Positions 3,627 to 29,381 of a stretch of 64,000 nt of DNA are shown here, piece after piece. The DNA is from a bacterium (GTDB lineage: Bacteria; Patescibacteriota; Minisyncoccia; Phycocordibacterales; Phycocordibacteraceae). The notes beneath the pieces were generated by a model. It saw nothing but the letters and a program-made list of their open reading frames with translations, had not been told where the DNA came from and searched no databases. The position numbers were made by a program, and so were the translations under genes. Numbering within the stretch: position 1 is the stretch's first letter; every line of letters begins with the position of its first letter. The stretch spans positions 21,136-85,135 of the forward strand of contig JAKBHL010000006.1 in NCBI GenBank assembly GCA_021836725.1, in the 5' to 3' direction.

Positions 3627-3629
3627 CAG

Positions 3630-3660
3630 AAAAAGCTCCCATGCATGGCATGGGAGCTCA
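3630..3660 (-). terminator. terminator hairpin downstream of queC
   Basis: GCTCCCATGC-ATG-GCATGGGAGC hairpin with an A-run on the plus strand, which reads as a T-run for the minus-strand transcript. Confidence 0.5.
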
Positions 3661-3681
3661 TAGTGGTTTGTACGGTGAAAG

Positions 3682-4359
3682 TTACGCGCTGCGCCGGTTT
3701 TCCAATGGGAACAACGCCGCATCTCTCGCGAGGCATTGTCCGCACGCCCCGCAGGGTTGTCCGTCCCTCGGGTCAGAACAGCTGAAAGTCTCGTCCATAC
3801 TAATCCCGTACTCGGGAGCCAGCATGCAGACGATTTGCGGCTTGCTGTACCTGATGAGCGGCAGAATGATCTGCGGGCGTACCTGCGCCTGTAGTTCCGC
3901 GAGGTCTTGATGAAGCGTGATGAGCCGAAACACCTTGCGGCGCTGCGATTCGTCCGGCAGGTCGTCCTTATGGAGCGCCCATGCGACTTTCCCGATGCGG
4001 GCCGTGCACGCGTGCATCAACGCCATGGTAAGCATGATCGATACGCTCATCGGCGCGCCCTGCGTATTGCTGCCCGGGCAGTTATTGATAGACCCGCCAA
4101 ACGACAGACGCAGGTCCGGCGCATGCCGGATCAGCTCGTCGGCCGACGTCAAATCCACCTCGATATGCCGCGTCGCGAATCGCTTCGCAAGGGCTCGGGC
4201 GCACAAGACTTCAGGCATGTTGTTCAGGCGGGATTCCTGCCGGAACGAAAGCGTGGTCACTTCAAATCCTTGTCTCTGAAGCATCGCAAGGCAGACAGCC
4301 GAGTCAATACCGCCAGAGAGCATGAGAAGCGCTTTCTTGAATTGCGTGATATTTTCCAT
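3682..4359 (-). CDS. queC: 7-cyano-7-deazaguanine synthase QueC
   Basis: LSGGIDS PP-loop near the N-terminus and a C-terminal CGxCxxC zinc motif (CGACGQC). GGAGA RBS upstream of the MENITQF start. The longer upstream extension was rejected. Confidence 0.85.
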   Translation of the reverse strand: MENITQFKKALLMLSGGIDSAVCLAMLQRQGFEVTTLSFRQESRLNNMPEVLCARALAKRFATRHIEVDLTSADELIRHAPDLRLSFGGSINNCPGSNTQGAPMSVSIMLTMALMHACTARIGKVAWALHKDDLPDESQRRKVFRLITLHQDLAELQAQVRPQIILPLIRYSKPQIVCMLAPEYGISMDETFSCSDPRDGQPCGACGQCLARDAALFPLENRRSA

Positions 4360-4482
4360 CGATATTCTCCCAAAGAAAAAGAGCAGTGGGGCTTTGCGAC
4401 AGTGCATCCCCACGGGAATGAAAGTACTCCGAGTACAAATAATGTCAATCGCACCCGGAAGGGTTATCCGCGTTGGAACATA

Positions 4483-4520
4483 AAAAACACCCGCGAATTG
4501 ATCGCGGGTGTTTTTGTTTT
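4483..4520. terminator. bidirectional rho-independent terminator
   Basis: AAAAAACACCCGCG-AATTGAT-CGCGGGTGTTTTTGTTTT, immediately 3' of the minus-strand gene ending at 4530. Confidence 0.65.
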
Positions 4521-4529
4521 ATGAACGGA

Positions 4530-5339
4530 TTAATTCCCCTCAGAATGAGGTGTCGTCGTGGAAGACCACGTAGGACCGGTCGATCCTTCGCTATTCTGTA
4601 CGCAGGTACCGCCCTCATCGACAATCGGACCAAGCTGGCAGTGGAGCCCTTCGGCGCACTGCGGCGCATTCTGGATAAAGCCGCCGCAGTGTGCGCCTAC
4701 GCCCACTTTCGCGTGCTCTCCTCCGCTCACGTCACCGGTCGAAGAGGCCGTGGAGTCGGAAGACGAAGAAGAGGAATCTCCCATCTCGCATTCCACCTCC
4801 AATTCCTTGTTTATATCTTCACGGGTCAGCGGCCCGACATTCCCGTAGCCCGTGGATTCGGAATCGCCCGAGGAAACGATGCCCTGAGCGGCCTGCCAGC
4901 GCTGTACCGCCGCCAACGTCGACGAGCCGAAGTAACCGGTGACGGCGTCTTCGGGGTAGATGCTCTTATTTTTTCCGAGGAACGCTTGCAGACGGGACAC
5001 TTCGCCTTCCGTGGTCCGATCGGTGGACCCGATACTCATGTTAGTCGAGAGCAGAGCGCAATTACCATTGCCGCTTGAGGTCGGCGTAGTGCCGCTTGAA
5101 GGATTCGAGCCGTTTGATGTCGAGGTTTGCGTCGAAGTCGCCGTATTTTCGAGCGCCGCCTGCACGTTTGCGATCGTCGCCGTATCGGCGCCGAATGCCT
5201 GCAGGAGGTTGAGTATGGCCTGGATCTGAACCGTGCTCAGAGGCGCGGCCTGGGCAAGAGAAGCGCCACCCAAAACGCTGACGACGAACGCCGCGCCGGT
5301 CACTAGGGAAAGAAAACGATGATTTCTAAAGAAGTGCAT
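4530..5339 (-). CDS. secreted protein with a PG_binding_1-like peptidoglycan-binding domain and Ser/Thr-rich linkers
   Basis: Signal-peptide-like N-terminus (MHFFRNHRFLSLVTGAAFVVSVLGGASLAQA). TGYFGSSTLAAVQRWQAAQGIV matches the peptidoglycan-binding repeat. Long S/T/G-rich low-complexity tracts. Cys-rich C-terminus. Confidence 0.6.
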   Translation of the reverse strand: MHFFRNHRFLSLVTGAAFVVSVLGGASLAQAAPLSTVQIQAILNLLQAFGADTATIANVQAALENTATSTQTSTSNGSNPSSGTTPTSSGNGNCALLSTNMSIGSTDRTTEGEVSRLQAFLGKNKSIYPEDAVTGYFGSSTLAAVQRWQAAQGIVSSGDSESTGYGNVGPLTREDINKELEVECEMGDSSSSSSDSTASSTGDVSGGEHAKVGVGAHCGGFIQNAPQCAEGLHCQLGPIVDEGGTCVQNSEGSTGPTWSSTTTPHSEGN

Positions 5340-5446
5340 TGTTACGTAAGCTAGCCAGTAATAACTTAAGAGGCCCATTCATGGTAGCACGGCACGGGAA
5401 CCCCCGAAGGGCTTTTGGGGGAAAACTCCTCTAGCCCAATGACACT

Positions 5447-5604
5447 AGAACCCATTTCAAAACCCCACTCCCCGCGAGAGGTATGCGGCAGAAAGAGGCT
5501 TACGGAGCGCGACGGCGCGAGTACGAGCCGCTTTTTGAGCACAAAAAGACGGCGTACTCCTTTCTGTCGCATACCCGAGAGCGGGGGTTTTGAAATGGGT
5601 TCTA
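5447..5604. repeat. palindromic repeat element, copy 2 (best preserved; perfect 21-bp terminal inverted repeats TAGAACCCATTTCAAAACCCC / GGGGTTTTGAAATGGGTTCTA)
   Basis: About 158 bp with an imperfect internal palindrome. ORFs called inside it on both strands are judged spurious. Confidence 0.8.
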
Positions 5605-5718
5605 GCTCTTCGGTAGTGCATTTGTGTTTCTACACACACGTGGTATAACCCCTAACGGCCAGTCAAAGATTTTTGGCGGCCAGGGTACTTCTTTCACTTT
5701 GTTCCTGTGAGGTGAATT

Positions 5719-5892
5719 ATGAGCACGAATAAAAAACCGAAGTCAGACCCTTCCTCCGGACCCTACGCGGCGATCCGCGCCATGAATAAAGAAGCGGTGC
5801 AAACCTTCCTCAAGGGAGAGAGCACCGATCCCGCTCAACTCATCGAGCGGTTTGAAGAGCGAGCGGAACTTGAGAGCAGGGAAGAAGGATAA
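5719..5892 (+). CDS. small hypothetical protein (57 aa)
   Basis: ATG with GAGGTG RBS 6 nt upstream. MSTNKKPKSDPSSGPYAAIRAMNKEAVQTFLKGESTDPAQLIERFEERAELESREEG. A strong terminator follows. It is below the ORF-track length cutoff. Confidence 0.4.
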   Translation: MSTNKKPKSDPSSGPYAAIRAMNKEAVQTFLKGESTDPAQLIERFEERAELESREEG

Positions 5893-5916
5893 CAATAACA
5901 GCGGTTTTCTTCCGTC

Positions 5917-5950
5917 AAAAGGGTACCCACGGGTACCCTTTTTGTTTTTT
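5917..5950 (+). terminator. rho-independent terminator
   Basis: AAAAGGGTACCC-AC-GGGTACCCTTTTTGTTTTTT. Confidence 0.7.
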
Positions 5951-6009
5951 GTTGCCGTTGCGGTATAGTGCTGCCCAGCACGTTCCTTAGACAGACAGAG
6001 GACACAAAT

Positions 6010-6261
6010 ATGCGACCTGCCACCGTTCTGCAAACACTGCACTGGATGAAAAGAGACAGTCGATTCCAGACATCGACCCTCCTCAAGCTTTTCGATCTGG
6101 CATACTTCTACCAGCACAGGGAGCTGAACGACCTGCGGATAATCCAAGACGCGCGCCGTATGAGGCAGGACGGATATGTACCGCCGTACGTCGTTCTCTT
6201 CCTCCGCAAACGTGTGCATCCGAAAATGCTGATCGTGAATAACGACCGGCGTGATCAATAA
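6010..6261 (+). CDS. hypothetical protein (83 aa)
   Basis: ATG at 6010 preceded by AGAGGA RBS and a TATAGT -10-like box. A terminator follows. Confidence 0.5.
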   Translation: MRPATVLQTLHWMKRDSRFQTSTLLKLFDLAYFYQHRELNDLRIIQDARRMRQDGYVPPYVVLFLRKRVHPKMLIVNNDRRDQ

Positions 6262-6303
6262 CAAAGAGCTGCTGATGCCTCATCAGCAGCTCTTTTCTTT
6301 TTC
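6262..6303 (+). terminator. rho-independent terminator
   Basis: AAGAGCTGCTGATG-CCT-CATCAGCAGCTCTT followed by TTCTTTTTC. Confidence 0.7.
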
Positions 6304-6322
6304 TGTCCCGCAGCATCCGAAT

Positions 6323-7108
6323 CTAACTGCCGACCACGGGGCTCGGTACCGTAAACGGCCGTACCGTACCAATGGCGGTTATGGTAAAGCTACCTTCTAT
6401 ATTTTTATTCCCGCTTATCGCATTGCTGAGACCCGCGACCGACTGGAGCAATGCGCCGCTCTGATCCGCGATGCAAGCCGACATCGGCACGATGGTTTCG
6501 GCGCTCCCATTGGCGTTCACGATGGTCCATACGTGCCCGGCAGTGTTGGCAAAATTACAGGTGCCGTCCTCGCGCAAACGTACCGTCGGGTTTGTCGCCA
6601 TTCCCCAGAATTGTTGTGCAAATCCCGGCAAAGGAGGGGTAGCACTCCCTTGCGAGGCATACCACTTCCCGAGTTTTACGTAGGTATGGGTACCGATATA
6701 CCTTTCTACCCATGGGGTAGTCGTTTCCCAATTGTCCGCACTGTACACATTGCCGGAAATCGTCATTGAGCGCCCTCCGCCATTGGTAACTTGTGTGTAA
6801 CTGTAGTTTGTGAGAGATTCCAACCTGGCAAGCGAAATATTGCCCGGAAGAACCGCGGTGCTCGGCACAATGCCTGAGGATCCGTTTTGCACGCCGATCG
6901 CGCTCGTGCCGGGTTGCACAGCGTTCTGTGCGTTTTTAAGAGCGAGGCCCAGAAAGACGACAAATAAAATACCAAAAATGACCGACAAGGGCTGGCGCAC
7001 TGCCGTCCCAAATCCGGTCCCTCTGCGCATCTGGCTGACGAGCGTCACGATAAGCAACACCACAGATATCGCGCTCGCGGTAAGAAAGGAATAGTGCATG
7101 AATCGCAA
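6323..7108 (-). CDS. membrane-anchored or secreted hypothetical protein
   Basis: N-terminal hydrophobic helix, then a Gly/Ser/Thr/Asn-rich extracytoplasmic-looking region. No recognisable catalytic motif. Confidence 0.45.
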   Translation of the reverse strand: MRFMHYSFLTASAISVVLLIVTLVSQMRRGTGFGTAVRQPLSVIFGILFVVFLGLALKNAQNAVQPGTSAIGVQNGSSGIVPSTAVLPGNISLARLESLTNYSYTQVTNGGGRSMTISGNVYSADNWETTTPWVERYIGTHTYVKLGKWYASQGSATPPLPGFAQQFWGMATNPTVRLREDGTCNFANTAGHVWTIVNANGSAETIVPMSACIADQSGALLQSVAGLSNAISGNKNIEGSFTITAIGTVRPFTVPSPVVGS

Positions 7109-11672: not shown

Positions 11673-12389
11673 TCAGGAGAGGATCGGGACGGCATACGTT
11701 TTCCTAAAGAGGATGGAATAAATGGTTATGTCCGTGACCACGATGCACCAGATGATGAGTGCGAGCTGAGCGTATCCGAAAAATACCCCGAGGAATGCGA
11801 ATAAAGCGAGCAGTGCTTCCACGGTGGTTATTTTCAGTTTTCGGAAAACGACCGCTGGGTTTTGCATGGACGGGAGTCTCAGTGTGTAGGTAAGCATCTC
11901 AAAAAGGAGGAATGCCAGTATGAGGATGCTGAAATACCCGGGATGGGCGAAAGAGAACGCGAGAGAGAGGTGGAGGAAAAGCAAGACCGCATGGAGCATT
12001 TTTTGGATGATCGTGTGGGCAGGCAGGACTTTCGAGACGAATGAATGGGAAGCGTACTCTTTCCACACGAGCGTCCCGTAGATGATGACCAGGGGCCATA
12101 CGAGCATCAAGTTCTGCAGGGCAATAGCCACACCGATAACGCCGAACACAACGAATAAAGCGATTTTTGCCGCCGCCCTTTTTTGAGAACTCATAAAAAC
12201 GTATGACGCCAGTGTACCATGGAGTGTGGTCATGCTCGCATACCCAAGATGAAATCCGGATGAAGAAGCGCGGAATGCTCTCTTCTCTTCGGGTAATGGA
12301 ATAAAAAGAAAGAACGTCACAGAACCTAGGTTCTGTGACGTCCAATTTTGATACTCGAAGCGTTGCTTAAGCCATAAACACCAGGCCAT
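11673..12389 (-). CDS. integral membrane protein, unknown function (start uncertain)
   Basis: Mostly hydrophobic with six or more predicted helices. No motif recognised. Confidence 0.4.
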   Translation of the reverse strand: MAWCLWLKQRFEYQNWTSQNLGSVTFFLFIPLPEEKRAFRASSSGFHLGYASMTTLHGTLASYVFMSSQKRAAAKIALFVVFGVIGVAIALQNLMLVWPLVIIYGTLVWKEYASHSFVSKVLPAHTIIQKMLHAVLLFLHLSLAFSFAHPGYFSILILAFLLFEMLTYTLRLPSMQNPAVVFRKLKITTVEALLALFAFLGVFFGYAQLALIIWCIVVTDITIYSILFRKTYAVPILS

Positions 12390-12525
12390 ATCGTTCCATG
12401 TCGATTACGAAGCAAGCGGGGTTGATAGTTCCCCAATTGATTCGTTCATCACCAACAACGTAAGACACGTCCGGATGCATTTGGTCAAGCACTTTTGCTC
12501 CTACATGGAGATATGAAAGAATATA

Positions 12526-13197
12526 ATGATATACGAATCAATTTATATGAAGTTTCCCCAAAACCAAAAAGAGAATATAGTCGGTCTTCATTTCTTATAT
12601 TCCCTAGAGTTCGAGATTTCGTATGTGCAGAATCTCGTGAAGAAATTTGTATGGTATCTGGAACAGGGATATCCTTCCGAGCTCATCCTGCTTCCACAAG
12701 GGGTGACTCAGCACTCGACAGAGGAAGAGGTCACGCAGGCGTTACAAGTCGAATACGATGCTGCCGATTATGCAGCATGTGCCGCGAGCCTACAGGAAGA
12801 ATGGAGAGATATCTCTGGAGGTTTTGAGAAGATGTGCAAGGAGCCAGTATTTCGTCTTGGAGACGAGTACAGCGTCGTCTTGACGAAGTACGGTACGGGG
12901 GGTAATTACAACGTCACTATGAGCCGAGTGACTATCCGTATCAATGCTCAGTCCTCCAAGAAGATGGCGGCGACTGTTGTGCACGAGATTATCCACATGA
13001 CCATCCAATACCTCATCGATCAGTATCGTGTGCGGCATTGGCGCAAAGAACGTCTCGTTGACTTGCTTGTCGAACGTTATTTCCCGGGGTTGAAGAAGAT
13101 GCAGATGATCAAAGAGGATGTTTCGATGGTCGATTCGGCGTTCAGTGAATCGTTTCCGGATATTGAAGCGATAGTACGGTCGATCCGATCATCGTGA
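12526..13197 (+). CDS. hypothetical protein with an HExxH motif (possible zinc-metallopeptidase-like fold)
   Basis: AATVVHEIIHMTIQYLIDQY. AT-rich codon usage unlike the neighbouring core genes. Confidence 0.4.
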   Translation: MIYESIYMKFPQNQKENIVGLHFLYSLEFEISYVQNLVKKFVWYLEQGYPSELILLPQGVTQHSTEEEVTQALQVEYDAADYAACAASLQEEWRDISGGFEKMCKEPVFRLGDEYSVVLTKYGTGGNYNVTMSRVTIRINAQSSKKMAATVVHEIIHMTIQYLIDQYRVRHWRKERLVDLLVERYFPGLKKMQMIKEDVSMVDSAFSESFPDIEAIVRSIRSS

Positions 13198-13257
13198 ATA
13201 ACGCGTCTGGGCGCGAAGGCGCTATCATCGACGGAAACATCCGATGAAGTAATATCA

Positions 13258-13287
13258 GTGTTAACAAGGTTAAACCTTGTTCTGACA
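13258..13287. repeat. 30-bp direct repeat, copy A (GTGTTAACAAGGTTAAACCTTGTTCTGACA; contains an AACAAGGTT-A-AACCTTGTT palindrome)
   Basis: Identical 30-mer recurs at 14804-14833. Confidence 0.8.
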
Positions 13288-13321
13288 CAAAAATATATTT
13301 AATTTAGTATTAACTCACAGT

Positions 13322-13573
13322 TTGGCATACGCTATAATTAAAAGCCTGGCAGAAGTAGCTAGAAAAATGAAGGAAGAAAACTTTACATTTCCGAGGGGTA
13401 CTTTACATAAAGTTTGTTGGGATATCTATCAGAAAGATAAGAGTGGTCAATATGAATCTGACTATGGAGATTTTTCTGAAATCGAGATCGATCAAATGGA
13501 AGACGAAAAATTTATTACAACGTTGCAGGATGAAATTAATTATTTAGAAAATAAATATGGACAAGCTACATAA
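13322..13573 (+). CDS. small acidic hypothetical protein
   Basis: AT-rich 83-aa ORF with no recognisable motif. Its 3' end overlaps the next gene by 17 nt. Confidence 0.35.
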   Translation: MAYAIIKSLAEVARKMKEENFTFPRGTLHKVCWDIYQKDKSGQYESDYGDFSEIEIDQMEDEKFITTLQDEINYLENKYGQAT

Positions 13574-14540
13574 AAAACACGTTCACAAGACAAAATCTGG
13601 CGGTACCGTCTCCCAATTCATTGAATCAAAGAATTTACCGGCGGATATCCAAATCAGTTCGTTCATAAATTTTGTCCATTTTGGAAGCGAGGTAATTTTG
13701 ACGCCGGACGACGGTACGTCTTGGGGCCCGGTTTCCGGGGAAATAAAAGGGCAAGTGGACTGGAGAAAAGAACTGGTGCGCGAGACAGGTGAAAAGGCCG
13801 GAGTGTTGGTTGATGGTGTGGTCTTGTGCGGATATATTTCAAATGAAAGTAAGGTAGGCGATTCCGATTCCGTTACGACAATCTCTCCCATATGTTATTC
13901 CTATTGTCACGATATTAATCCCACGTGGACTCCGAAAGGAATAATGACGAGAGAACTTTTTTCTCATTCCAATGTTAAGGAACACCTAGCGAAGAGAAAC
14001 GACGAGGGTCAGATGTTAGAACTGTATCTGTATATACACGACCAGTTTAATAGGGATCTGCGCATCGAATTTTCTTTTTTACCCGACGAAATGCCGGATG
14101 TCATATTCGTGACATCGGCAATGGTTTTTTGCATCGATGATGACAATCGAATATGCCTTGTTAAAGACGGTGATGAGGATTTTTATAGTCTACCCGGAGG
14201 AGGTCGTAGGCTTCTCGAATCTCCACTGGAATGTGCAAAGCGGGAACTGCAAGAAGAGGCTCAGATTACCGCGAAGAACTTCAAAATCTTTGGAAGCATA
14301 ATCGTTAGCTTCTATTCAAACGACGTCTTGATCTCTAAGATGCAACAAGCCAGGTATATTTGCGACGTAGATGTTATGGGGGAATTCATTCCTTTCAAAG
14401 ACGGTTTCGAGACGGATGAAAGAATATTCGTTCAGGCGGATCAACTTCTAACACTTGGTAAACAGTTCAAAAATAATAACGGCATCCAAATCGTTGAGCA
14501 TTTAATAAAGATACAACTTGATCGAGAACACAACGCTTGA
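13557..14540 (+). CDS. two-domain protein: unknown N-terminal domain plus C-terminal Nudix hydrolase domain
   Basis: LPGGGRRLLESPLECAKRELQEEAQI matches the Nudix box GX5EX7REUXEEXGU. Confidence 0.6.
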   Translation: MDKLHKKHVHKTKSGGTVSQFIESKNLPADIQISSFINFVHFGSEVILTPDDGTSWGPVSGEIKGQVDWRKELVRETGEKAGVLVDGVVLCGYISNESKVGDSDSVTTISPICYSYCHDINPTWTPKGIMTRELFSHSNVKEHLAKRNDEGQMLELYLYIHDQFNRDLRIEFSFLPDEMPDVIFVTSAMVFCIDDDNRICLVKDGDEDFYSLPGGGRRLLESPLECAKRELQEEAQITAKNFKIFGSIIVSFYSNDVLISKMQQARYICDVDVMGEFIPFKDGFETDERIFVQADQLLTLGKQFKNNNGIQIVEHLIKIQLDREHNA

Positions 14541-14561
14541 TATTGAAGATCAGCTGTAGCT

Positions 14562-14813
14562 ATGCATGTGAAGAGAATCCCGCAGGAGATTATAGGCAAT
14601 CGAGATATTAGCACGGTCACTCTCGATATTGATGGAACGATGGTTAATGAGTACGTAGAAATGCCGGACGAGATTATCGATGCGGTTCGTCAGTTACTAG
14701 GCGCGAAAGTGCACATTGTGATTTGTACAGCTCGCAGTATTGAGAGTATTCTAAAACTTTTCAAGAAATTCTTTTCCGAAGAGGAGATGAGTCTATTTTC
14801 CACTCCGTGTTAA
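14562..14813 (+). pseudogene. truncated HAD-superfamily (Cof-like) hydrolase; only the N-terminal 83 aa remain
   Basis: VTLDIDGTMVN is HAD motif I (DxDGT). The reading frame runs straight into the second copy of the 30-bp repeat and stops there. Full-length members are about 270 aa. Confidence 0.5.
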
Positions 14814-14833
14814 CAAGGTTAAACCTTGTTCTG
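14804..14833. repeat. 30-bp direct repeat, copy B
   Basis: Identical to 13258-13287. Confidence 0.8.
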
Positions 14834-15157
14834 ACAGCAAAAAATGCGAACATCCATCAGCAAGGATCAGTCCCTTGGCGTCCCAAAATGGACCGAGCGG
14901 ATGATTGAGAAGTTCGGACCTGAACTCACCATGCGGCAGCGAGGGAGGCCAAGAAAAGGTATCTGACACCATTTCCACCATTTCCATCAATTTTGGAGGC
15001 CGCACATATGTGCGGTATGTTGCCTCAAAAGGAACGTTCTTGCTCAACAATATGTTAATCTCTATAAAACTGCTATTGACGCTTATCAGGCTGATAAGCA
15101 GTTTGAACCTTGGTCGCATTTAACAAGAACGCTTCAAGCCCAATTTAAATAGTCGCT

Positions 15158-16078
15158 ATGCAAGAAATCTCTGAAGCTTTAAAGGAATATGGCCTGTCTG
15201 CGAACTCGCCTATAAATCTTGTTCGCGAATCTGCGGACAATGTTGTGTATGTTATTGGTGAAGATGATAAGAAAATCTTAAGAATTAGCAAAAGACTTTC
15301 TGTTGAAGATGTTGCTTTCGAATATGAAGCAATAAAATACCTCGCACAAAATGGTGTACCTGTAGCGCACTGGCTAACGACGAAAGCGGGGAAGGAATAC
15401 TCGTTGGTAGATGGCCACGCCGCAGTTCTTTTTGATTTTTTGACTGGCCATCATATAAATGTTGATAAAGATAATCTCCCGACACAAGTTCAAGCTTATT
15501 CCGCCGGAGCAGAGTTGGGTCGTATGAGTAATGCCGCCAGTACGTTTACATCAAATGCTCCGAGAACGAGAACTATTTTTTCTGAGCTCGAGCGCGTGCT
15601 CTCCCTTGAAGAAATGTTTGTTAAGGATTTTGAAGGCGGTGAGGAATTCGTTAACCAAGTTAAAGAAGCACTAAAATTCGGTAGAGCACAAAACGAGATA
15701 ATTGGCTTTATTCACAATGACTATCGTCCAAGCAATGTATTTTTTGATGAGAACGATCAAGTGACGGGAATAATCGATTTCGATTGGAGCTGCATGGGCC
15801 CAGTAGTTAAAGACTTAGCTCTAGCACTCGTGGAATGGTCTTTCCCAGATGGAGCCACCGAAGCAAATATGGCGCTATTCCAAGGATTCCTAGATGGATA
15901 CAATTCTATTTCGAATAAGAAGTGGAAGAAGGACGACAAACTCTATTCTTGGATTAAATTCGCCACTCTTTCTGATGCATCAACATATTTTTGCGACTTG
16001 GCTGAAGACCTGACTTCAACTAAGCGAATCATTAAGTCGTATATGTATCGAAAGTTCACGTTCTTTTCACAAGCCTAG
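15158..16078 (+). CDS. phosphotransferase (APH / choline-kinase-like) family kinase
   Basis: IHNDYRPSNVFF (Brenner HxDxxxxN catalytic loop) and GIIDFDW (DFG-equivalent) motifs. Confidence 0.65.
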   Translation: MQEISEALKEYGLSANSPINLVRESADNVVYVIGEDDKKILRISKRLSVEDVAFEYEAIKYLAQNGVPVAHWLTTKAGKEYSLVDGHAAVLFDFLTGHHINVDKDNLPTQVQAYSAGAELGRMSNAASTFTSNAPRTRTIFSELERVLSLEEMFVKDFEGGEEFVNQVKEALKFGRAQNEIIGFIHNDYRPSNVFFDENDQVTGIIDFDWSCMGPVVKDLALALVEWSFPDGATEANMALFQGFLDGYNSISNKKWKKDDKLYSWIKFATLSDASTYFCDLAEDLTSTKRIIKSYMYRKFTFFSQA

Positions 16079-16183
16079 TCATGGAGCCATATCTTTATTT
16101 GCAGGGTTTAAAGAAGCTTGCCAAAGAGGCCCGTGGAGATGAAGTAATACATATCGGGATAAGACCTGTGCTATAGTCTTTGC

Positions 16184-21652: not shown

Positions 21653-22045
21653 TTGACAACGATTATCTTTGAACCAAACATCTATCATATGGGTATTAAT
21701 CAGCCGTTCAGAAGAGATAAATTCTATCGTGATCGCGACAGTTACGCCGAATGGTGGACAATTGGGTGTTCTGCGTGTGCTCAAAAAGTGCTTCTCTATC
21801 AAAAAGATGGACACGGTAAATTATATCGTTGCTATCTAAATCGAATTTTTGCTCCATCAGACTATGCAAATCTTCAGTATGATTCAAGATTGACGGTAAA
21901 AAAACTACCCAATCTTGTTTGTGCACACTGTAAGAATCTTCTCGGAATCCCCATGCTTCATTGGGAAGGCAGGCTTGCGTTTCGACTAATCAAAGGACGT
22001 TGGGTAAGACGTAAAGCACAGCAATCCGATGAATGGAAAATCTAA
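21653..22045 (+). CDS. small protein with a four-Cys zinc-ribbon-like motif
   Basis: CSAC...CAHC Cys pairs. Overlaps the next gene by 17 nt. Confidence 0.4.
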   Translation: MTTIIFEPNIYHMGINQPFRRDKFYRDRDSYAEWWTIGCSACAQKVLLYQKDGHGKLYRCYLNRIFAPSDYANLQYDSRLTVKKLPNLVCAHCKNLLGIPMLHWEGRLAFRLIKGRWVRRKAQQSDEWKI

Positions 22046-22748
22046 AGATATAATACGGACTGTACGGAAAATCCTTATTCCAAAGGGGAAGAGGATACAA
22101 GTCGTTGAGTGCGGAGTAAAGAAGTATCTACTCGTCACACGAAAAGGCGTTGGCGCAATTCATACACCATATGGATATTTTTGGCAATATGATTTTCATG
22201 TTAATGATGAATGGGAGAAATATTCTGTCTTAGTACGCGCTTCGCTGAATGGGCAATTCAATCCAGTTTTTACTCGTAAAAACCTGTTGCTCCGCATAGA
22301 TTCTGGATGCGAGACGGGGCAACTCTTTCATGACAACACATGCGAATGTCGTGAACAATTGCATCTAGCATTACAAAGAATTGACGAATACGGAGAAGGG
22401 ATCATTGTGCACATCCCTTCTCAAGATGGGCGTGGTGGTGGGTTGGCTTTCAAGCTTGCAACACTGCTTCTCGAAAAGGATTTGGGGATGGATACGATAG
22501 AAGCCGCACGTGTTCTTACTGACGGGGGCGAAATAGATTTTCGAACCTATGGAGGTGTAGTTGGTATCTTGAAATTCTTCCGCGCCCAGAAAGAAGTATT
22601 TCTTATGACGAACAATCCGCTCAAGATCTCAGCTCTCACTGAAAATAAATATAAAATATCACGCCTAAATATCGTTGTCCCACCAACACGCTTCACTGCT
22701 AGACATTTGCGTGCCAAAGAGCAAGAGCTCGGACATATGCTTTCATGA
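22029..22748 (+). CDS. GTP cyclohydrolase II (RibA)-family protein
   Basis: RIDSGCETGQLFHDNTCECREQLHLALQRIDEYGEGIIVHIPSQDGRGGGLAFK...LMTNNPLKISALTE aligns with the RibA zinc motif CxxGxxxxxxxCxC and the C-terminal LTNNPxK region. Confidence 0.7.
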   Translation: MNGKSKDIIRTVRKILIPKGKRIQVVECGVKKYLLVTRKGVGAIHTPYGYFWQYDFHVNDEWEKYSVLVRASLNGQFNPVFTRKNLLLRIDSGCETGQLFHDNTCECREQLHLALQRIDEYGEGIIVHIPSQDGRGGGLAFKLATLLLEKDLGMDTIEAARVLTDGGEIDFRTYGGVVGILKFFRAQKEVFLMTNNPLKISALTENKYKISRLNIVVPPTRFTARHLRAKEQELGHMLS

Positions 22749-23545
22749 CGGAGCAGTTAACCATTTCGCTGCGGGGATTGTCTGCATCTGGGAAGGGCAC
22801 AATAGCGCCGATTCTTGCAAAAGAACTTAACGTACAGCATATAGATTGCGGACTATTGTTCAGAGCAATAGCGTTGTATATATGCGAACATCAAATTACG
22901 AGCAAACATCTTTTCCTAGAGAAAGTTCGTATTCGAATGATATGCGAAACGGTGTTCATTGTTGAAGAAAAAACATATCCTCGCGAGCAATTGCAAACTG
23001 AAAAGGTCGGATATCTTGCGGCTGAGTTGGCCAAAAGCCACAGCGAACAGCTTGTGTCATTAGTGAATGAACTGCTATCGAGTATGTCGCGAGTTGTCGT
23101 AGATGGGCGAAACGCAGGATTGAATATTCTCCCTAATCCGGACTTTTCTTTTTTCCTTCAAGCAAGTTTGAAGTCGCGTATCCAACGACGGTATGAGCAA
23201 GAAAGGTTTATTAATAAGGAAATAAAGAAATCAGAGATAAAATCTTCTCTCATCAAAAGAGACACTGTTGATCAAAAACGTGACAGAAAGCTCACAGAAC
23301 CCCAATTAAATGAGCACATCATCGTAACAGATGGGAAGACTCCATTACAATGCGCTAGAGAAATTGTCTCCGTAGTCAGAATTAAGACAAAAATGTTGGC
23401 ATGGACTGCAGTAGATAAACATGGAGATTTTTTCACTTATGAAGATGGAACAGTAGTTGTGGTAAGAAATAAGAGCCAGATACCTATCAGAGTGCGAGAA
23501 AGCGAGGAATATTCCGTGGTTAAAATAGAACTCAAGTTTGCGTAA
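22745..23545 (+). CDS. cytidylate-kinase-like P-loop nucleotide kinase with a C-terminal extension
   Basis: ISLRGLSASGKGTIAPILAKELNVQHIDCGLLFRAIAL resembles the Cmk N-terminus (P-loop plus the D.G..YR region). ATGA start/stop overlap with the upstream gene. Confidence 0.55.
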   Translation: MTEQLTISLRGLSASGKGTIAPILAKELNVQHIDCGLLFRAIALYICEHQITSKHLFLEKVRIRMICETVFIVEEKTYPREQLQTEKVGYLAAELAKSHSEQLVSLVNELLSSMSRVVVDGRNAGLNILPNPDFSFFLQASLKSRIQRRYEQERFINKEIKKSEIKSSLIKRDTVDQKRDRKLTEPQLNEHIIVTDGKTPLQCAREIVSVVRIKTKMLAWTAVDKHGDFFTYEDGTVVVVRNKSQIPIRVRESEEYSVVKIELKFA

Positions 23546-24735: not shown

Positions 24736-26334
24736 ATGGGTGCTCTTGCGAATTTTGATCTCTTGTCGGTAGGCGTCGCCATCGCGGGCACGCTCGTGCT
24801 CGGGTTCGTCATTTATTTCACCGATCAGAAGAGTGGTACGAATCGCATCTTTTTCGCGTTCGCGTTCGTCACCGCGATATGGGGCTTGCTCAACTATCTC
24901 AGTTATCGCGTCGAGGATCTATCCGTCGCGTTTGCACTCCTACGTTTCGAACTTGCGCTCGCCGTGTGGCAAACGTTCATAATCTTTCGGCTTCTGCTCA
25001 TCTTCCCGGACCGCGACGATGTACTTCCACGGCGCTATCTGCTCGCGCTTGTCGTGTACGCGGGCGTCGTATCCGTGCTGTGCCTCACGCCATTCGTCTT
25101 TGAGCGCATCACTACAGTTACCGCCACGGGGTATATCAAAGACATAGCCGTCGGGCCGGCAATCGCGCTCTTCGGCGTCACGAGTATAGGGTTCGTCCTT
25201 GCAGGGTGGATAGTGTGCGCCCGGAAGACGTTCCGCCTCAGGGGCGCACAGCGTGCGCAAACGGGTTTCTTCCTGCTCGGGGCGATTGCGATGTTCTTGC
25301 CAATCATCATTCTGAACTTCATCTTTCCAGCATTCTTGCGGGATTCGAGATTCGTTCCGTATGGCGCGGTCTCAATATTCCCGTTCGTGCTGTTCACGTC
25401 TTACGCAATCCTGCGTTTCCATTTGTTCAACATCAAGGTCATTACGACGTCCATACTCGTATTCGTGCTTTCCATCGTTTCATTTGGGCAGATTCTTTTC
25501 TCGGGCACACTGCCTGCGATGCTGTTCCAAGCGAGCGTTTTCATGCTCGTGCTCGTATTCGGCATCAACCTGATCAGGAACGTTATCCGGGAAGTGGAGC
25601 AGCGGGAAAAGATACAGAAACTCGCGAAAGAATTGGAGGAGATCAATAAACGGCAGGAAACACTCATCCACTTCATCGGGCACGAGGTGAAGGGGTTCCT
25701 GACCAAGGCTGAGGGCGCATTCGCGTCGCTTACCGACGGTGATTTTGGCCAGTTGCCTGAGGAACTGAAGCCGTTCGTCGAGCGCTCATTCGCCGAGACC
25801 CGGCAAGGCGTTGGTTCGGTCGAGGACATCCTCAAGGCGTCGAACATCAAGAAGGGAACTGTGGCATACGCCAAAGAGCCATTCGATCTGAAAGCGCTCG
25901 TGACAGAAGCGGTCGAGAAGGCAAAGATGGCGGCCGCCCAGAAAGGTCTTGCGCTTACTCTCGTCGCAGACGACGCGTCGTATCAGATGACTGGCGACAG
26001 AGCGCAAATCAACGACCACGTCCTGCGCAACCTCATCGACAACGCTATCAACTACACGCCATCGGGTTCTATCGTGGTCTCGCTCGCGCACGAGAACGGC
26101 AAGGTCGTCTTCGCCGTGAAAGACAGCGGCATCGGCATCACCGACGAGGACAAACAGCGTCTTTTCACCGAGGGCGGCCACGGCAAGGACTCGCAGACGA
26201 TCAACGTGCACTCCACCGGCTACGGTCTCTACATCGCAAAACAGATTACCGAGGCGATGGGCGGCACGATCCGCGCCGAGTCCGAAGGCGCGGGGCGAGG
26301 GTCTACATTCATCGCGGAATTTCCTGCGGGATAG
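24736..26334 (+). CDS. sensor histidine kinase with multi-pass membrane N-terminal domain
   Basis: About 7 TM helices, H-box HFIGHEVKGF, and an HATPase_c C-terminus GYGLYIAKQITEAMGGTIRAESEGAGRGSTF. Confidence 0.8.
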   Translation: MGALANFDLLSVGVAIAGTLVLGFVIYFTDQKSGTNRIFFAFAFVTAIWGLLNYLSYRVEDLSVAFALLRFELALAVWQTFIIFRLLLIFPDRDDVLPRRYLLALVVYAGVVSVLCLTPFVFERITTVTATGYIKDIAVGPAIALFGVTSIGFVLAGWIVCARKTFRLRGAQRAQTGFFLLGAIAMFLPIIILNFIFPAFLRDSRFVPYGAVSIFPFVLFTSYAILRFHLFNIKVITTSILVFVLSIVSFGQILFSGTLPAMLFQASVFMLVLVFGINLIRNVIREVEQREKIQKLAKELEEINKRQETLIHFIGHEVKGFLTKAEGAFASLTDGDFGQLPEELKPFVERSFAETRQGVGSVEDILKASNIKKGTVAYAKEPFDLKALVTEAVEKAKMAAAQKGLALTLVADDASYQMTGDRAQINDHVLRNLIDNAINYTPSGSIVVSLAHENGKVVFAVKDSGIGITDEDKQRLFTEGGHGKDSQTINVHSTGYGLYIAKQITEAMGGTIRAESEGAGRGSTFIAEFPAG

Positions 26335-26362
26335 ATTCAAGAAATATGACATTCGTGATATA

Positions 26363-26599
26363 ATGAGCAGTATGAGAAATATTATGCAATTTCAGATTTC
26401 TGAAAGCGATGGAGGCTATGTCGCCGAGGGTGTAAGCGTGCCTATTGTTACCCAAGGAGAGACTCTTGATGAACTTGCTTCGAATATTCGCGAAGCAGTC
26501 GGGCTCTATGTAGAAGGTGAAAATCTCGCTGAGCTTGGTTTCGCACCGGCGCCTTCAGTGTTGGTAAATTTCGAGCTTCCCGCATCGGTGCATGCCTAA
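26363..26599 (+). CDS. hicB: HicB-family antitoxin (UPF0150)
   Basis: MQFQISESDGGYVAEGVSVPIVTQGETLDELASNIREAVGLYVEG. Overlaps hicA by 8 nt. Confidence 0.65.
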   Translation: MSSMRNIMQFQISESDGGYVAEGVSVPIVTQGETLDELASNIREAVGLYVEGENLAELGFAPAPSVLVNFELPASVHA

Positions 26600-26834
26600 A
26601 CCAAAGAGGCTTTCAGGGCCGGATATTATTCGGATCTTTGAGACGTTTGGTTTTACAATCGAGAACCAGCGAGGGAGTCACATAAAGCTCTCGCGTCTTG
26701 AATCTGACGAGAAACAAGTACTGCTCATCTCGAATCACAAAGAGCTAAAGACGGGAGCGGTCGTGGGGATATTTAAGCAGGCGACGCGATATGTGGCAGA
26801 ATCGGAACTTCGCGGACATTTCTACACTGAGTAA
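26592..26834 (+). CDS. hicA: HicA-family mRNA-interferase toxin
   Basis: IIRIFETFGFTIENQRGSHIKLSR...KELKTGAVVGIFKQA (YcfA/HicA GSH motif). Confidence 0.65.
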   Translation: MPKPKRLSGPDIIRIFETFGFTIENQRGSHIKLSRLESDEKQVLLISNHKELKTGAVVGIFKQATRYVAESELRGHFYTE

Positions 26835-26844
26835 CCCGTATTAA

Positions 26845-26925
26845 AGCGCACGGCGGCACGATCCGCGCCGAGTCCGAAGGGCAGGGGAAAGGTTCCACCT
26901 TCACCACAGAGTTTCCGGAGGTATA
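26845..26925 (+). repeat. degenerate copy of the histidine-kinase 3' end (second of three)
   Basis: Translates to HGGTIRAESEGQGKGSTFTTEFPEV*. Compare the real C-terminus GGTIRAESEGAGRGSTFIAEFPAG* at 26260-26334. Confidence 0.75.
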
Positions 26926-26960
26926 GAATCAACCCCAAAAGGAAACATCCTATCTGCGAT

Positions 26961-27437
26961 CTATGAAAGCGTTCTGTAGAACGACTCCACTTCACTAATG
27001 AGCATATTCTTCAAATAAAAAATCGGTATTTGCAATGATTCACCGGCATTATGCTCCCATTGACTCCCTATGCTTGTCTCCCACAACGGGAGAAAAACTA
27101 ATCCTGATATTTTCCCCGATTTTAAAATCGGATTGTAGAAGAAATCGAGCAGGGGGTAATCATACTCGTGGTGGTCTCTCAAAATATCGTCCAGTCGTTT
27201 TTCATATGAGACTTGATTGAACACAGATATCCCCCTTCTTTTTGCCGCTTGTATCATGGAATGCAAGCAATCTAGATTTTCTGTCACACTTCCGAGACCA
27301 CCTGTCGAAATCGGTCCGCAAAATTGAATGACCGGAGACTTAAGCCTTGATATTTCCAAGAGCGCTTCCTCCACTAGTTCGGTCAGTTCCTTTTTATACT
27401 TGCTTTCTGTATCTTCGCGTGATTTTTGACTATTCAT
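26961..27437 (-). CDS. hypothetical protein (possible nucleoside 2-deoxyribosyltransferase-like / DUF4406-like fold, low confidence)
   Basis: VIQFCGPISTGGLGS resembles the YLAGP-type motif of that fold. AT-rich. Divergent from the CYTH-domain gene. Confidence 0.4.
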   Translation of the reverse strand: MNSQKSREDTESKYKKELTELVEEALLEISRLKSPVIQFCGPISTGGLGSVTENLDCLHSMIQAAKRRGISVFNQVSYEKRLDDILRDHHEYDYPLLDFFYNPILKSGKISGLVFLPLWETSIGSQWEHNAGESLQIPIFYLKNMLISEVESFYRTLS

Positions 27438-27476
27438 AGCATTTACTATATAGTATACATTGTCCTAATAATATAT

Positions 27477-29078
27477 ATGCTTTCGCTCAAAGAACAGCAG
27501 CGTCGGCTCTCCGTTAACGTTATTAATTACTCACTTGAGGGGATGTGGAGTTCTCACCCACTCATTTCAGAACTCAGAAAAAGGGTTTCTGCTTTTCTGC
27601 CTAAAGAAGGGATTTATGACCCTCAGGATCTTGAACATCAAGCGTTATTCAGGCTAACGACGTTCGACCCAAAAGTCATAAATGACGAGCTCATTCAGTT
27701 TGTTGTCCAAGAGCAATACGAGGTGGTGAAGGATCGCCTGAATAAACTCGATTACGATACGGAGTATCTATTCAGAGGGCTTACGGGGAAATACCACGAC
27801 CTTAATGTAAACGACCGCCTCGAACTGCGATGGGAAAATGAACAACTCATCGCCAAAAATGATCGGCGATCGTTTAATGTCGAATTCCGGACCGTGCATG
27901 ACGAAAACATTGTTTCCCTATTTTCTAACGAACTCCACTATATTCACCAGGACCGGCCCAAGGGAGAGACTTTCGGATTTTATTTCGTCGGCGACACTAT
28001 ACCGTGGGCGATAGAGACAACAGAACCTTCTGCGATTGCAAAGCAGTACAAGAGAGATGCTCTGCTTGCAAATGGGATAGATCCGAACAAAGCCATCGAA
28101 CTCACCCGATTCTACACATTGCCGGGCGCACCAGTAAATGCTATCTCACTGATGGACGGATTGGTGGCAAGACACTACAAACAAAAAGGCATTGAAGCGC
28201 TCTATACAACCACCATGCCGATGTACTCGAAAACGAAAGGGACTACAATAGCGGGTGGCGTCAACAAACCATTACTCGTCAAAGATCTGCGACATAAATT
28301 CATCCCGGAAAAAATAGACGGTAGGATATTCTATCGACACGTGACAACAATCCCGGAAGATCACAAAGAAATCGAAGTTATAAAAACACATCCGAATTTC
28401 CCGACCATGCTTGTTGTCGAAGTCTTCCGCACGTTAAATGATCCAGGATTAAAACCGATTCCCATACTCGAAGACAAGTCAAAGGTTATCTATGTCATCC
28501 AAAGAGACGGCGCGAAGCTTGAAGAAGAGGTCAAGCTCGCCGTGCAAGATATCCCGGCGGTACTCGCGAAAATCCGTTCTGTAGCGAAGTATGTCCGGAC
28601 CGAATACGTACGGGATGTGATCTATGGCACGAAAGATGAGAAAAAGAAGATCCGTCTGCGGATACAGGATAACTTCGAGTTCCGTCTCGTCGACGCCACC
28701 TACAAATATCGTGTAGCGGTCGAAGACGGGGTTAAGAAAGAGATTGAAGAGACCCTCTATAAAGGAAACTCTTGCGAAGATGCTCTGAAATTCATCGCTT
28801 CACAAGGCGACTTCGTCGAGGAGAATTCATATGAAAAAATAAGAACCGTCTTCATCAGCCCTCACGGTACCGAGATTACGCTTGATATCTATCCTTATGG
28901 AGCGTGGGTTGAGATTGAGGGCGAAACCCGCAAGATTCATGACGTCGCGAAACAACTCGGCTTTACACAGAAAGATTACATTGACACGGGTGCGGACGAT
29001 CTTTATCTCGCTTGGATAAAGAAATATAATCTCTCCGAGATGTGGGATGTTCGCTTCGGCTTGAGCGGCAATAAATAG
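27477..29078 (+). CDS. large protein with a C-terminal CYTH-like (class IV adenylyl cyclase / triphosphate-tunnel) domain and an unknown N-terminal region of about 380 aa
   Basis: C-terminal RLRIQDNFEFRLVDATYKYRV...ISPHGTEITLDIYPYGAWVEIEGE fits the CYTH beta-barrel pattern (ExE...K...LD.v.glG.fvEiE). Start placed at the ATG downstream of a TATA-rich promoter-like stretch. Confidence 0.5.
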   Translation: MLSLKEQQRRLSVNVINYSLEGMWSSHPLISELRKRVSAFLPKEGIYDPQDLEHQALFRLTTFDPKVINDELIQFVVQEQYEVVKDRLNKLDYDTEYLFRGLTGKYHDLNVNDRLELRWENEQLIAKNDRRSFNVEFRTVHDENIVSLFSNELHYIHQDRPKGETFGFYFVGDTIPWAIETTEPSAIAKQYKRDALLANGIDPNKAIELTRFYTLPGAPVNAISLMDGLVARHYKQKGIEALYTTTMPMYSKTKGTTIAGGVNKPLLVKDLRHKFIPEKIDGRIFYRHVTTIPEDHKEIEVIKTHPNFPTMLVVEVFRTLNDPGLKPIPILEDKSKVIYVIQRDGAKLEEEVKLAVQDIPAVLAKIRSVAKYVRTEYVRDVIYGTKDEKKKIRLRIQDNFEFRLVDATYKYRVAVEDGVKKEIEETLYKGNSCEDALKFIASQGDFVEENSYEKIRTVFISPHGTEITLDIYPYGAWVEIEGETRKIHDVAKQLGFTQKDYIDTGADDLYLAWIKKYNLSEMWDVRFGLSGNK

Positions 29079-29086
29079 CCTTCGCG

Positions 29087-29160
29087 CACGGCGGCACGAT
29101 CCGCGCCGAGTCCGAAGGGCAGGGCAAGGGCTCGACGTTTATCGCAGAATTTCCTGCTTA
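29087..29160 (+). repeat. degenerate copy of the histidine-kinase 3' end (third of three)
   Basis: Translates to AHGGTIRAESEGQGKGSTFIAEFPA*. Confidence 0.75.
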
Positions 29161-29381
29161 ATTAAACCCATTTTGGCTATGAAATTTTAGAAGTAGAGTT
29201 AATAGATCCTGATTTATTCTTTAGATACATACCGATGTAACGAAAGCGGCGTCACAACAAGAGGGTCCGAGGACTTATTTTGACGCCGTAGTTGAGATAC
29301 CCGTTTCGGAACCGGCCCAAAATCCCAATGACTTGAGCGGGCTTTGCGGCAATCCGCAGAATTGACCACGTTTCCTATTCG

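Follow-up and report, generated by a model that had tools for sequence, protein, structure and literature searches.

We characterized a pair of divergent genes within a 64,000-nucleotide stretch of bacterial DNA (hereafter the window), which encode a 533-aa protein on the plus strand and a 158-aa protein on the minus strand. The large protein is an undescribed fusion of a GNAT (GCN5-related N-acetyltransferase) module of the type found in the Mom protein of phage Mu with a CYTH/triphosphate-tunnel domain, and its gene is linked to one for a partner resembling nucleoside 2-deoxyribosyltransferases (NDT-like). Of the explanations that we weighed for the pair, the one we favour, tentatively and with somewhat less than even confidence, is that it forms a mobile two-enzyme cassette acting on free nucleotides and not on DNA. 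Homologues come from metagenome-assembled genomes of Parcubacteria/Patescibacteria (for example, Zambryskibacteria and Minisyncoccia), and the window is therefore assigned to a bacterium of the candidate phyla radiation (CPR). The two genes are laid out as follows.

26961-27437, minus strand: partner protein, 158 aa, divergent DUF4406/NDT-like by its homologue, fold and motif matches
27477-27866, plus strand: N-terminal region of the large protein (residues 1-130), mostly helical, family-specific and without a family match
27867-28268, plus strand: Mom-type GNAT core (residues 131-264), by hhalign against an alignment of phage Mom proteins
28269-28511, plus strand: beta-rich C-terminal part of the module (residues 265-345), with AlphaFold2 strands at 264-289, 312-319 and 336-340
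28512-29078 including the stop codon, plus strand: CYTH/triphosphate-tunnel metalloenzyme domain (residues 346-533)

Both proteins correspond to open reading frames (ORFs) of the window, at 26961-27437 and 27477-29078, in which the peptides RLRIQDNFEFRLVDATYKYRV, ISPHGTEITLDIYPYGAWVEIEGE and FCGPISTGGLG are all found. The length of 533 aa is counted from the ATG, where the homologues also start; an alternative TTG start at 27426 would give 550 aa.

A Mom-type module fused to a CYTH domain

Full-length homologues of the large protein number more than 150 (42-85% identity) and carry only the database names “CYTH domain-containing protein”, “adenylate cyclase class IV” or “hypothetical”. The query drew no match when scanned directly against Pfam, NCBIfam and PADLOC, and searching PDB sequences with profiles of the family alignments gave nothing useful. 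The initial annotation had recognized the CYTH domain, placed its boundary at about residue 380 and found nothing identifiable before it. The boundary now lies near residue 345, and the part preceding it turned out to be a Mom-type GNAT module, as judged from hhalign, from Pfam Mom matches in homologues and from bridging relatives.

The query itself does not match the Pfam Mom family (PF25680), whose gathering score is 27.1 bits; sub-threshold matches were found in 24 of 67 homologues, always at residues ~135-240 (best E 3.1e-4), with scores of 13.7-20.8 bits in the ten homologues that were inspected. Searching 1.84 billion representative proteins with a profile of residues 1-345 retrieved 174 relatives, and the bridge to Mom is provided by P0293 and P0297, which match the N-domain profile (E 7e-10 and 8e-9, respectively) and also exceed the Pfam Mom threshold (34.9 and 30 bits). 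When the alignment of the module family (139 sequences) was compared with an alignment of 13 Mom sequences from phage genomes, hhalign paired residues 131-264 with Mu Mom 26-156 over 128 columns (probability 97.5%, E 6.2e-12); the significance is reached only in this profile-profile comparison, and hhalign against a single Mom sequence was not significant. Within the aligned region, H154/Y155, R211 and S224 correspond to H58/Y59, R111 and S124 of Mu Mom (PDB 8bv8) and are invariant in 67 sequences, with an Arg-to-Ser spacing of 13 residues in the large protein and in Mom alike. As read from the alignment, the two also share a P-x-N-x-x-S loop in place of the canonical R/Q-x-x-G-x-G/A loop with which GNAT enzymes bind coenzyme A (CoA). 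In a Foldseek search against viral models, phage proteins of the N-acetyltransferase superfamily (NAT_SF) appear among the CYTH matches.

Mom was shown in 2026 to move glycine from Gly-tRNA(Gly) onto N6 of adenine in double-stranded DNA, for which it needs H58, Y59, R111, S124, D149 and R151 as well as a helix-turn-helix-like insertion (PMC13219725). This insertion (Mom residues ~175-209) is absent from the predicted structure of the large protein, which has beta strands only between residue 264 and the CYTH domain, and the module-Mom alignment stops before it. Further differences are that the large protein scores below the Pfam threshold and carries M247/M249 for D149/R151; that it adds a 130-aa N-terminal region, a beta-rich tail and the CYTH fusion; and that it is cellular (CPR) and not phage-borne, with partners that point to free-nucleotide acceptors. 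On these comparisons, residues 1-345 are a Mom-type GNAT module, of the acyl/aminoacyl-transferase kind, but not a Mom orthologue. The module extends beyond the homologous core: an invariant D48-PQDLEHQxLFRLTT-62 motif lies within residues 1-130, this segment co-occurs with the GNAT core in other architectures (profile positions 17-67), and residues 265-345 are likewise retained with the module there (profile positions up to ~332).

Two further observations concern the distribution of Mom-like sequences. In a set of ~600-aa proteins (P0192, P0199, P0202, P0207, P0212 and others) the module is C-terminal, and the 200-340 aa that precede it have neither a family match nor a Walker motif; P0195 (1037 aa) shares this architecture and also has a long C-terminal extension. 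In Microbacterium phage Appa, the gene of a Mom-like “acetyltransferase” (positions 395-1128 of the retrieved locus, L025) adjoins a phage tRNA-Gly(CCC) gene, in keeping with Gly-tRNA(Gly) being the reported donor for Mom.

The CYTH domain was recognized from an AlphaFold2 (AF2) model built on 67 homologues, with a predicted local distance difference test score (pLDDT) of 89. Foldseek against the PDB placed residues ~346-533 closest to Sulfolobus SaTTM (7ns9, E 1.7e-8, template modelling (TM) score 0.76 on the target), and also retrieved Pyrococcus PH1819 (2een) and a class IV adenylate cyclase (2fjt, E 1.7e-6). Beyond 7ns9, more than 25 further CYTH structures were matched, with target TM scores of 0.71-0.78. 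The ExExK motif is kept among the 67 homologues, with E349 in 47, E351 in all and K353 (as K or R) in all, and the query carries the tunnel residues R393, R395, K410, E453, K454, R456, D470, E479 and E481, most of which are invariant across the family. Fold and motif, with both the basic and the acidic tunnel residues, are thus those of CYTH enzymes such as SaTTM, PH1819, CyaB and thiamine triphosphatase (ThTPase), from which the large protein differs in that the domain forms the C-terminal part of a 533-aa fusion and in that the query has no match to Pfam CYTH (PF01928) at E ≤ 1 and does not reach its gathering score. Eight of the 67 homologues do match this family, one of them (P0058) above the threshold (24.1 bits against a cut-off of 23.2). 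From the modelled fold and the conserved catalytic residues, residues 346-533 are identified as a CYTH/triphosphate-tunnel domain with a full set of catalytic residues, as the initial annotation had proposed for the C-terminus.

The NDT-like partner and the genes that take its place

The small protein had been suspected to carry a loop like that of nucleotide-binding enzymes, and PF14359, fold and phrog_355 matches now place it with the DUF4406/NDT-like group. Its 63 homologues include some with PF14359 (DUF4406), which matches 35 of the 37 aligned family members (best E 7.8e-8). Two segments are invariant in the family, the GPISTGG loop (residues 41-47; P42-I-S-x-G-G47) and S122-x-G124-x-x-W127-E128. 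The AF2 model (pLDDT 91) is alpha/beta and may have the three-layer fold of the superfamily that comprises DUF4406, DUF1937, Rcl-DNPH1 and BlsM; its best Foldseek match in the PDB is 1t1j (DUF1937, deoxyribosyltransferase-like fold; probability 1.0, E 0.018, TM 0.55-0.69), followed by weaker matches to BlsM, Rcl and DNPH1 (E 0.2-0.8). The protein also matches phrog_355, “nucleoside 2-deoxyribosyltransferase”, at E 1.3e-3. Enzymes of the superfamily have an N-terminal Gly-rich loop for phosphate/ribose and a catalytic Glu within S/D-x-G-x-x-x-E. By inspection, FCGPISTGG resembles the YFCGSIRGG of DNPH1 and the spacing of SxGxxWE equals that of the DNPH1 catalytic motif SLGVGYE; a profile comparison with DNPH1 was not significant (hhalign E 0.023 over 14 columns). 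The query differs from the superfamily in falling under the DUF4406 threshold and in having an extra N-terminal helix of 30 residues. Together, these matches make it probable that the partner belongs to the nucleoside 2-deoxyribosyltransferase-like superfamily, of which it would be a putatively active enzyme.

To characterize the neighbourhood, we pooled exact-protein look-ups, a scan of representative genomes and a metagenome scan, and removed near-duplicates to leave 72 distinct loci. Twelve loci came from the representative genomes of 185,579 species, in a pattern-based scan of limited sensitivity, and scans of viral contigs in IMG/VR gave no relative. The expectation that the two genes are conserved as neighbours holds within the clade of the window: among the 32 loci at ≥59% identity to the window protein, the NDT-like gene is adjacent in 25, whereas it is adjacent in none of the 40 loci below 59%. 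The 25 fall into two gene orders (21 with the partner divergent and upstream, four with it downstream, same-strand and overlapping); three others of the 32 have good flanks and no partner.

Below 59% identity, where other genes can take the partner's place, 29 of the 40 loci fall into five architecture classes, the remainder being partial or otherwise unclassified. All seven CYTH-fusion loci at 41-49% identity carry a P-loop (guanylate-kinase-like) gene and a particular Ham1-like gene downstream. Where the module stands alone (~350 aa, seven loci), a P-loop kinase lies upstream and the same Ham1-like gene downstream, and this gene also adjoins the two loci in which kinase and module are fused. 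Two loci (L036, L086) have a split module and separate CYTH gene, and the fifth class consists of CYTH-fusion loci with neither type of partner, to which we return below. The ~330-aa module is also found fused to AAA_17/18 or cytidylate-kinase domains and to Ham1; the Ham1 domain fused to it in P0206 and P0209 matches the free Ham1 protein encoded beside the CYTH fusion in L008 (E 5e-57). Kinase-module-Ham1 operons occur in L035, L037, L038 and others, and genes for nucleoside-diphosphate kinase (NDK) and NUDIX proteins recur near module loci. The NDT-like partner and Ham1 were never found together at one locus.

One of the split loci (L036; GCA_041643095.1, JBGGHE010000065.1, positions 3254-6606) encodes, in order, a Metallophos/SbcD-like protein, an NDT-like DUF7768 protein, a Mom-like module of 348 aa and a CYTH protein of 194 aa. 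The separate CYTH protein matches the profile of the window CYTH domain (E 2e-64), the NDT-like gene (DUF7768/DUF1937/DUF4406; phrog_355 E 2e-12) lies ~0.5 kb upstream of the split module and CYTH genes, and the locus is the split form of the window system. Its contig is phage-like by gene layout alone (many short same-strand ORFs); PHROGs matched nucleotide-metabolism families on it and no structural phage gene. A degenerate or split copy was also observed at positions 7875-8982 of L022/L110, as a 123-aa N-terminal fragment and a 170-aa CYTH ORF within a dense nucleotide-metabolism cluster, whose flanking genes include a P-loop kinase (by Pfam) and, by sequence reading only, two NUDIX proteins, a deaminase, an NDK-like protein and a histidine phosphatase.

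Many relatives sit among genes for ribosomal proteins, tRNA synthetases, FtsK and pilus components. The tRNA-synthetase neighbours, seen at several loci by sequence reading and Pfam, were judged compatible with chance in small CPR genomes. A histidine kinase was likewise discarded as a family-wide partner: its presence beside the pair is confined to the closest relatives and is explained by the insertion site described below. A search of the literature turned up no account of Mom-like/CYTH, Mom-like/kinase or Mom-like/Ham1 architectures, nor of the DUF4406 partner.

Flanking repeats and the mobility of the pair

The pair lies next to a toxin-antitoxin cassette and between copies of an 81-nt direct repeat, of which there are three in the window (copies 75-80% identical, with a perfect core of 29-41 nt).

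26260-26340, plus strand: repeat copy c1, the real 3' tail in use on the HisKA_7TM histidine-kinase gene (24736-26334)
26363-26834, plus strand: HicB/HicA toxin-antitoxin cassette, directly upstream of the pair (context, outside the pair)
26852-26932, plus strand: repeat copy c2, left flank, a spare copy of the kinase tail, stop codon included, between hicA and the small gene
27426-27476: divergent control region, with a sigma-70-like TTGACT-17-TATAGT site on the plus strand at 27426-27454 found by consensus scan
29090-29170, plus strand: repeat copy c3, right flank, a spare copy of the kinase tail starting 11 nt past the stop codon of the large gene

The translation of c2 is GGTIRAESEGQGKGSTFTTEFPEV followed by a stop codon, and every copy still codes for GGTIRAESEG.G.GSTF..EFP and a stop. 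The 41-nt core is perfect between c2 (26846-26886) and c3 (29084-29124), where it starts 5 nt past the stop codon of the large gene. With hicBA itself bracketed by c1 and c2, the order of kinase, c1, hicBA, c2, pair and c3 looks like the product of two cassettes inserted in tandem at one site. HicA is well supported (Pfam PF07927, E 4.9e-12, 46.2 bits against a cut-off of 27) and the match of its HicB-like antitoxin is weak (HicB_lk_antitox, E 0.014).

Comparable repeats flank the pair elsewhere. A relative at 87% identity (L053/L039) lacks hicBA in the interval from kinase gene to pair, and its pair has on either side a perfect 68-nt copy of the kinase tail of that genome (L053, 3410-3477 and 5623-5690). 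In L078 the pair separates the two transketolase genes and is flanked by a perfect repeat of at least 39 nt (~60 nt by eye; 1263-1301 and 3425-3463) that represents the tail of the transketolase N-subunit gene. A Zambryskibacteria lineage (L005, 5033-5106 and 7798-7865) has a 74-nt, 85%-identical repeat around the pair and one extra gene. Two lipoprotein genes that flank them, paralogues of each other, begin with this repeat, and since their paralogy alone could yield it, the evidence is weakest in this lineage. Counting the window, four lineages thus have direct repeats of the end of a neighbouring gene, 40-81 nt long, around the pair, at three different target genes. Transposases ordinarily make much shorter duplications of their targets, and no recombinase or integrase was identified.

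On this evidence the pair moves between genomes as a unit, which independently supports a functional coupling of its two genes. Elements that are flanked by att sites, lack an integrase and accrete in tandem (CIME-type, cis-mobilisable elements) are the nearest analogy. Here too two cassettes, hicBA and then the pair, stand in tandem, with three direct copies of the target gene's 3' tail between and around them; the differences are that no integrase was identified here and that the repeats copy different target genes in each lineage, such that a single att specificity does not explain the insertion. The long duplications of target tails around the pair and HicAB cassettes point to an uncharacterized process of cassette insertion in CPR bacteria.

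The base composition of the locus also sets the pair apart: its G+C content is 41-46%, whereas the window as a whole has 54.6% and the kinase and dehydrogenase genes on either side have 53-61%. The spacer between the two start codons measures 39 bp (27438-27476) and is ~79% A+T. The sigma-70-like site matches the consensus at 10 of 12 positions and is a candidate promoter, for which the evidence is weak because the scan of the region found five sites where 3.5 are expected.

The surroundings of the pair vary between strains. Two strain variants of the locus (L001 and L002) are identical in a core of a nitroreductase-like gene, the kinase, hicBA, the pair and a short-chain dehydrogenase/reductase (SDR) gene, and differ in their flanks: the upstream flank of L002 carries TrmB, GTP cyclohydrolase II and cytidylate kinase genes and its downstream flank a type I restriction-modification system, and the upstream flank of L001 carries UCP032817-like and peptidase S15 genes. 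In the window, a GTP cyclohydrolase II gene (PF00925) overlaps the cytidylate-kinase gene (PF02224) at 22029-23545, in a second low-GC patch (41-43% G+C); the kinase bears a C-terminal extension of ~55 aa, and the operon is present in L002 and a further strain variant (L003) and not in L001 and another (L004). This kinase (22745-23545), 4 kb upstream of the pair, matches none of the kinases fused to the module and was not counted in the system. A third low-GC patch (12000-16100, 43% G+C) codes for a 327-aa NUDIX-domain protein (13557-14540) and an APH-type phosphotransferase (15158-16078).

A possible free-nucleotide pathway and its alternatives

In the pathway that we tentatively propose, the CYTH tunnel would bind, and probably hydrolyse, the triphosphate of a nucleoside triphosphate (NTP) or its deoxy form (dNTP), and the Mom-like site (H154/Y155, R211, S224) would transfer an acyl group to the exocyclic amine of the base. 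The acyl donor would be an aminoacyl-tRNA by analogy with Mom, acyl-CoA being the alternative. The partner may cleave or exchange the N-glycosidic bond of a nucleoside monophosphate (NMP), a step that would either clear away the unmodified competitor or set the modified base free. Among distant relatives, the CYTH domain and/or the partner are replaced by a P-loop nucleotide kinase along with a dedicated Ham1-like NTP pyrophosphatase. The possible outcomes include modified DNA or RNA, a modified-base product, or the editing or poisoning of the nucleotide pool in phage or host conflict. We place the acceptor among free (d)NTPs or (d)NMPs because the module lacks the DNA-binding insertion and two active-site residues of Mom, and because its recurrent fusion partners and neighbours are a triphosphate binder, NMP kinases, an NTP pyrophosphatase, NDK, NUDIX proteins and a protein resembling NMP glycosidases.

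Phage T4 modifies its nucleotides before replication by means of gp56 (dCTPase), gp42 (dCMP hydroxymethylase), gp1 (dNMP kinase) and the host NDK. The triad of kinase, modifier and pyrophosphatase in the relatives of the window protein mirrors such pre-replication pathways (gp1/gp42/gp56), in that an NTP pyrophosphatase (Ham1-like or CYTH), a base modifier and an NMP kinase, sometimes with NDK, are grouped around the module. In contrast to T4-type pathways, the modifier here would be a Mom-type GNAT where those pathways use a thymidylate-synthase-like enzyme, most of the genes lie on CPR chromosomes, and the window clade has the NDT-like partner in place of kinase and Ham1. In a review of jumbo phages, MazG-like and CYTH triphosphatases were assigned to the clearing of unmodified NTPs (PMC7824862).

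Several observations weigh against the pathway. The essential D149 and R151 of Mom align with M247 and M249 in a dissimilar local context (TTTMPMYSKTK versus SFADERCG in Mom), and the chemistry or the substrate may therefore differ substantially. Donor (aminoacyl-tRNA or acyl-CoA) and acceptor are both inferred, and CYTH domains can also be cyclases or act on triphosphates other than nucleotides. The assignment of the partner query to its superfamily draws on weak scores, with 13.2 bits (E 0.12) against a PF14359 cut-off of 22, in addition to the Foldseek E value given above (0.018). Eleven CYTH-fusion loci at 50-57% identity have neither type of partner, and therefore the large protein can work alone. 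Finally, in the window clade neither a kinase nor a Ham1 gene accompanies the pair.

As a first alternative, the pair could be an anti-phage defence module that senses infection and depletes, poisons or signals via nucleotides, for instance with the Mom-like/CYTH enzyme making a toxic or signalling nucleotide and the NDT-like protein acting as effector or immunity factor. Both folds (CYTH and NDT-like) occur in known nucleotide-based immunity, and the cassette is mobile, of atypical composition, repeat-bracketed and located in an insertion hotspot that it shares with HicAB. Its distribution is sporadic (the 12 loci of the representative-genome scan, with its limited sensitivity), and in strain variant L002 the type I restriction-modification system lies ~6.5 kb downstream of the large gene. 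We nonetheless regard this explanation as unlikely. The initial annotation had drawn on the insertion hotspot and its toxin-antitoxin module to suggest a typical anti-phage context: the hotspot beside HicAB is borne out by the direct repeats c1-c3, whereas the wider context is not, with family-wide partners (kinases, Ham1, NDK and NUDIX) that point to metabolism and relatives that often stand among the housekeeping genes listed above. Nor did a match to a described defence system emerge, neither protein matching any model of PADLOC-DB 2.0 at E ≤ 1. The pair lacks a sensor or effector domain, and nothing was found in IMG/VR or in neighbourhoods of the defence-island type elsewhere.

Somewhat less probable still is housekeeping salvage or pool sanitation, in which scavenged non-canonical nucleotides would be processed or detoxified in CPR bacteria with their reduced genomes, the NDT-like protein corresponding to DNPH1 and Ham1 to ITPase. 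Ham1, NUDIX and the DNPH1-like fold are classical pool sanitizers (the PDB name of DNPH1 is “5-hydroxymethyl-dUMP N-hydrolase”), many relatives are in housekeeping contexts, and the large protein is highly conserved along its full length in the more than 150 proteins mentioned above (42-85% identity). However, the 12 loci found among GTDB species representatives are far from a universal presence in Patescibacteria, and the window copy is a recently inserted low-GC cassette. The Mom-type site with its conserved Ser/Arg pair also suggests the making of a modification and not its removal.

It is improbable that the large protein is a true Mom-type enzyme, which would modify replicated double-stranded DNA at adenine, as self-protection or against restriction, with the CYTH domain and the partner as accessories. 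The homology of the GNAT core, with three catalytic positions of Mom kept, agrees with such a role, as do the wide occurrence of Mom family members in phages and bacteria and the split version on a contig of phage-like gene layout (L036). Against it stand the loss of D149 and R151, the absence from the predicted model of the helix-turn-helix-like insertion that Mom needs, a query score under the Pfam Mom threshold, and recurrent fusions and neighbours that all act on free nucleotides and not on DNA. That the large protein is a CyaB-like signalling enzyme, a class IV adenylate cyclase regulated by its N-terminal domain, is very improbable: some sources do name homologues “adenylate cyclase class IV” and the fold matches Yersinia CyaB (2fjt and 3n0z, E ~1e-6), but the triphosphatases SaTTM (7ns9) and PH1819 match better, the larger and more conserved N-terminal module has its own set of catalytic motifs, and the database label is automatic and follows from the CYTH domain alone.

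In its furthest-reaching form, the free-nucleotide explanation would make the large protein the first Mom-type aminoacyl-tRNA-dependent transferase that acylates free nucleotides and not DNA. It would belong to an unknown pathway for modified nucleotides or bases in CPR bacteria and their phages, with interchangeable accessories (CYTH or Ham1 for the triphosphate, a kinase and an NDT-like glycosidase), encoded in the window clade by a two-gene cassette whose insertion would duplicate 40-80 nt at one end of a target gene, in a mode unexplained by known elements. We consider it doubtful that this form holds as a whole. Both folds and the chemistry of Mom were known already, whereas the fusion, the alternative sets of partners, the suggested class of substrate and the cassette behaviour are new. 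The picture that emerges is of a cellular relative of Mom wired to nucleotide-handling domains (CYTH, NMP kinase, Ham1 and NDT-like). If true, it would carry acylation of the tRNA-dependent (or at least of the GNAT) type beyond DNA into the nucleotide pool, correct the “adenylate cyclase class IV” label that the family of the large protein bears in databases, and offer a testable entry into the nucleotide chemistry of the little-studied Patescibacteria.

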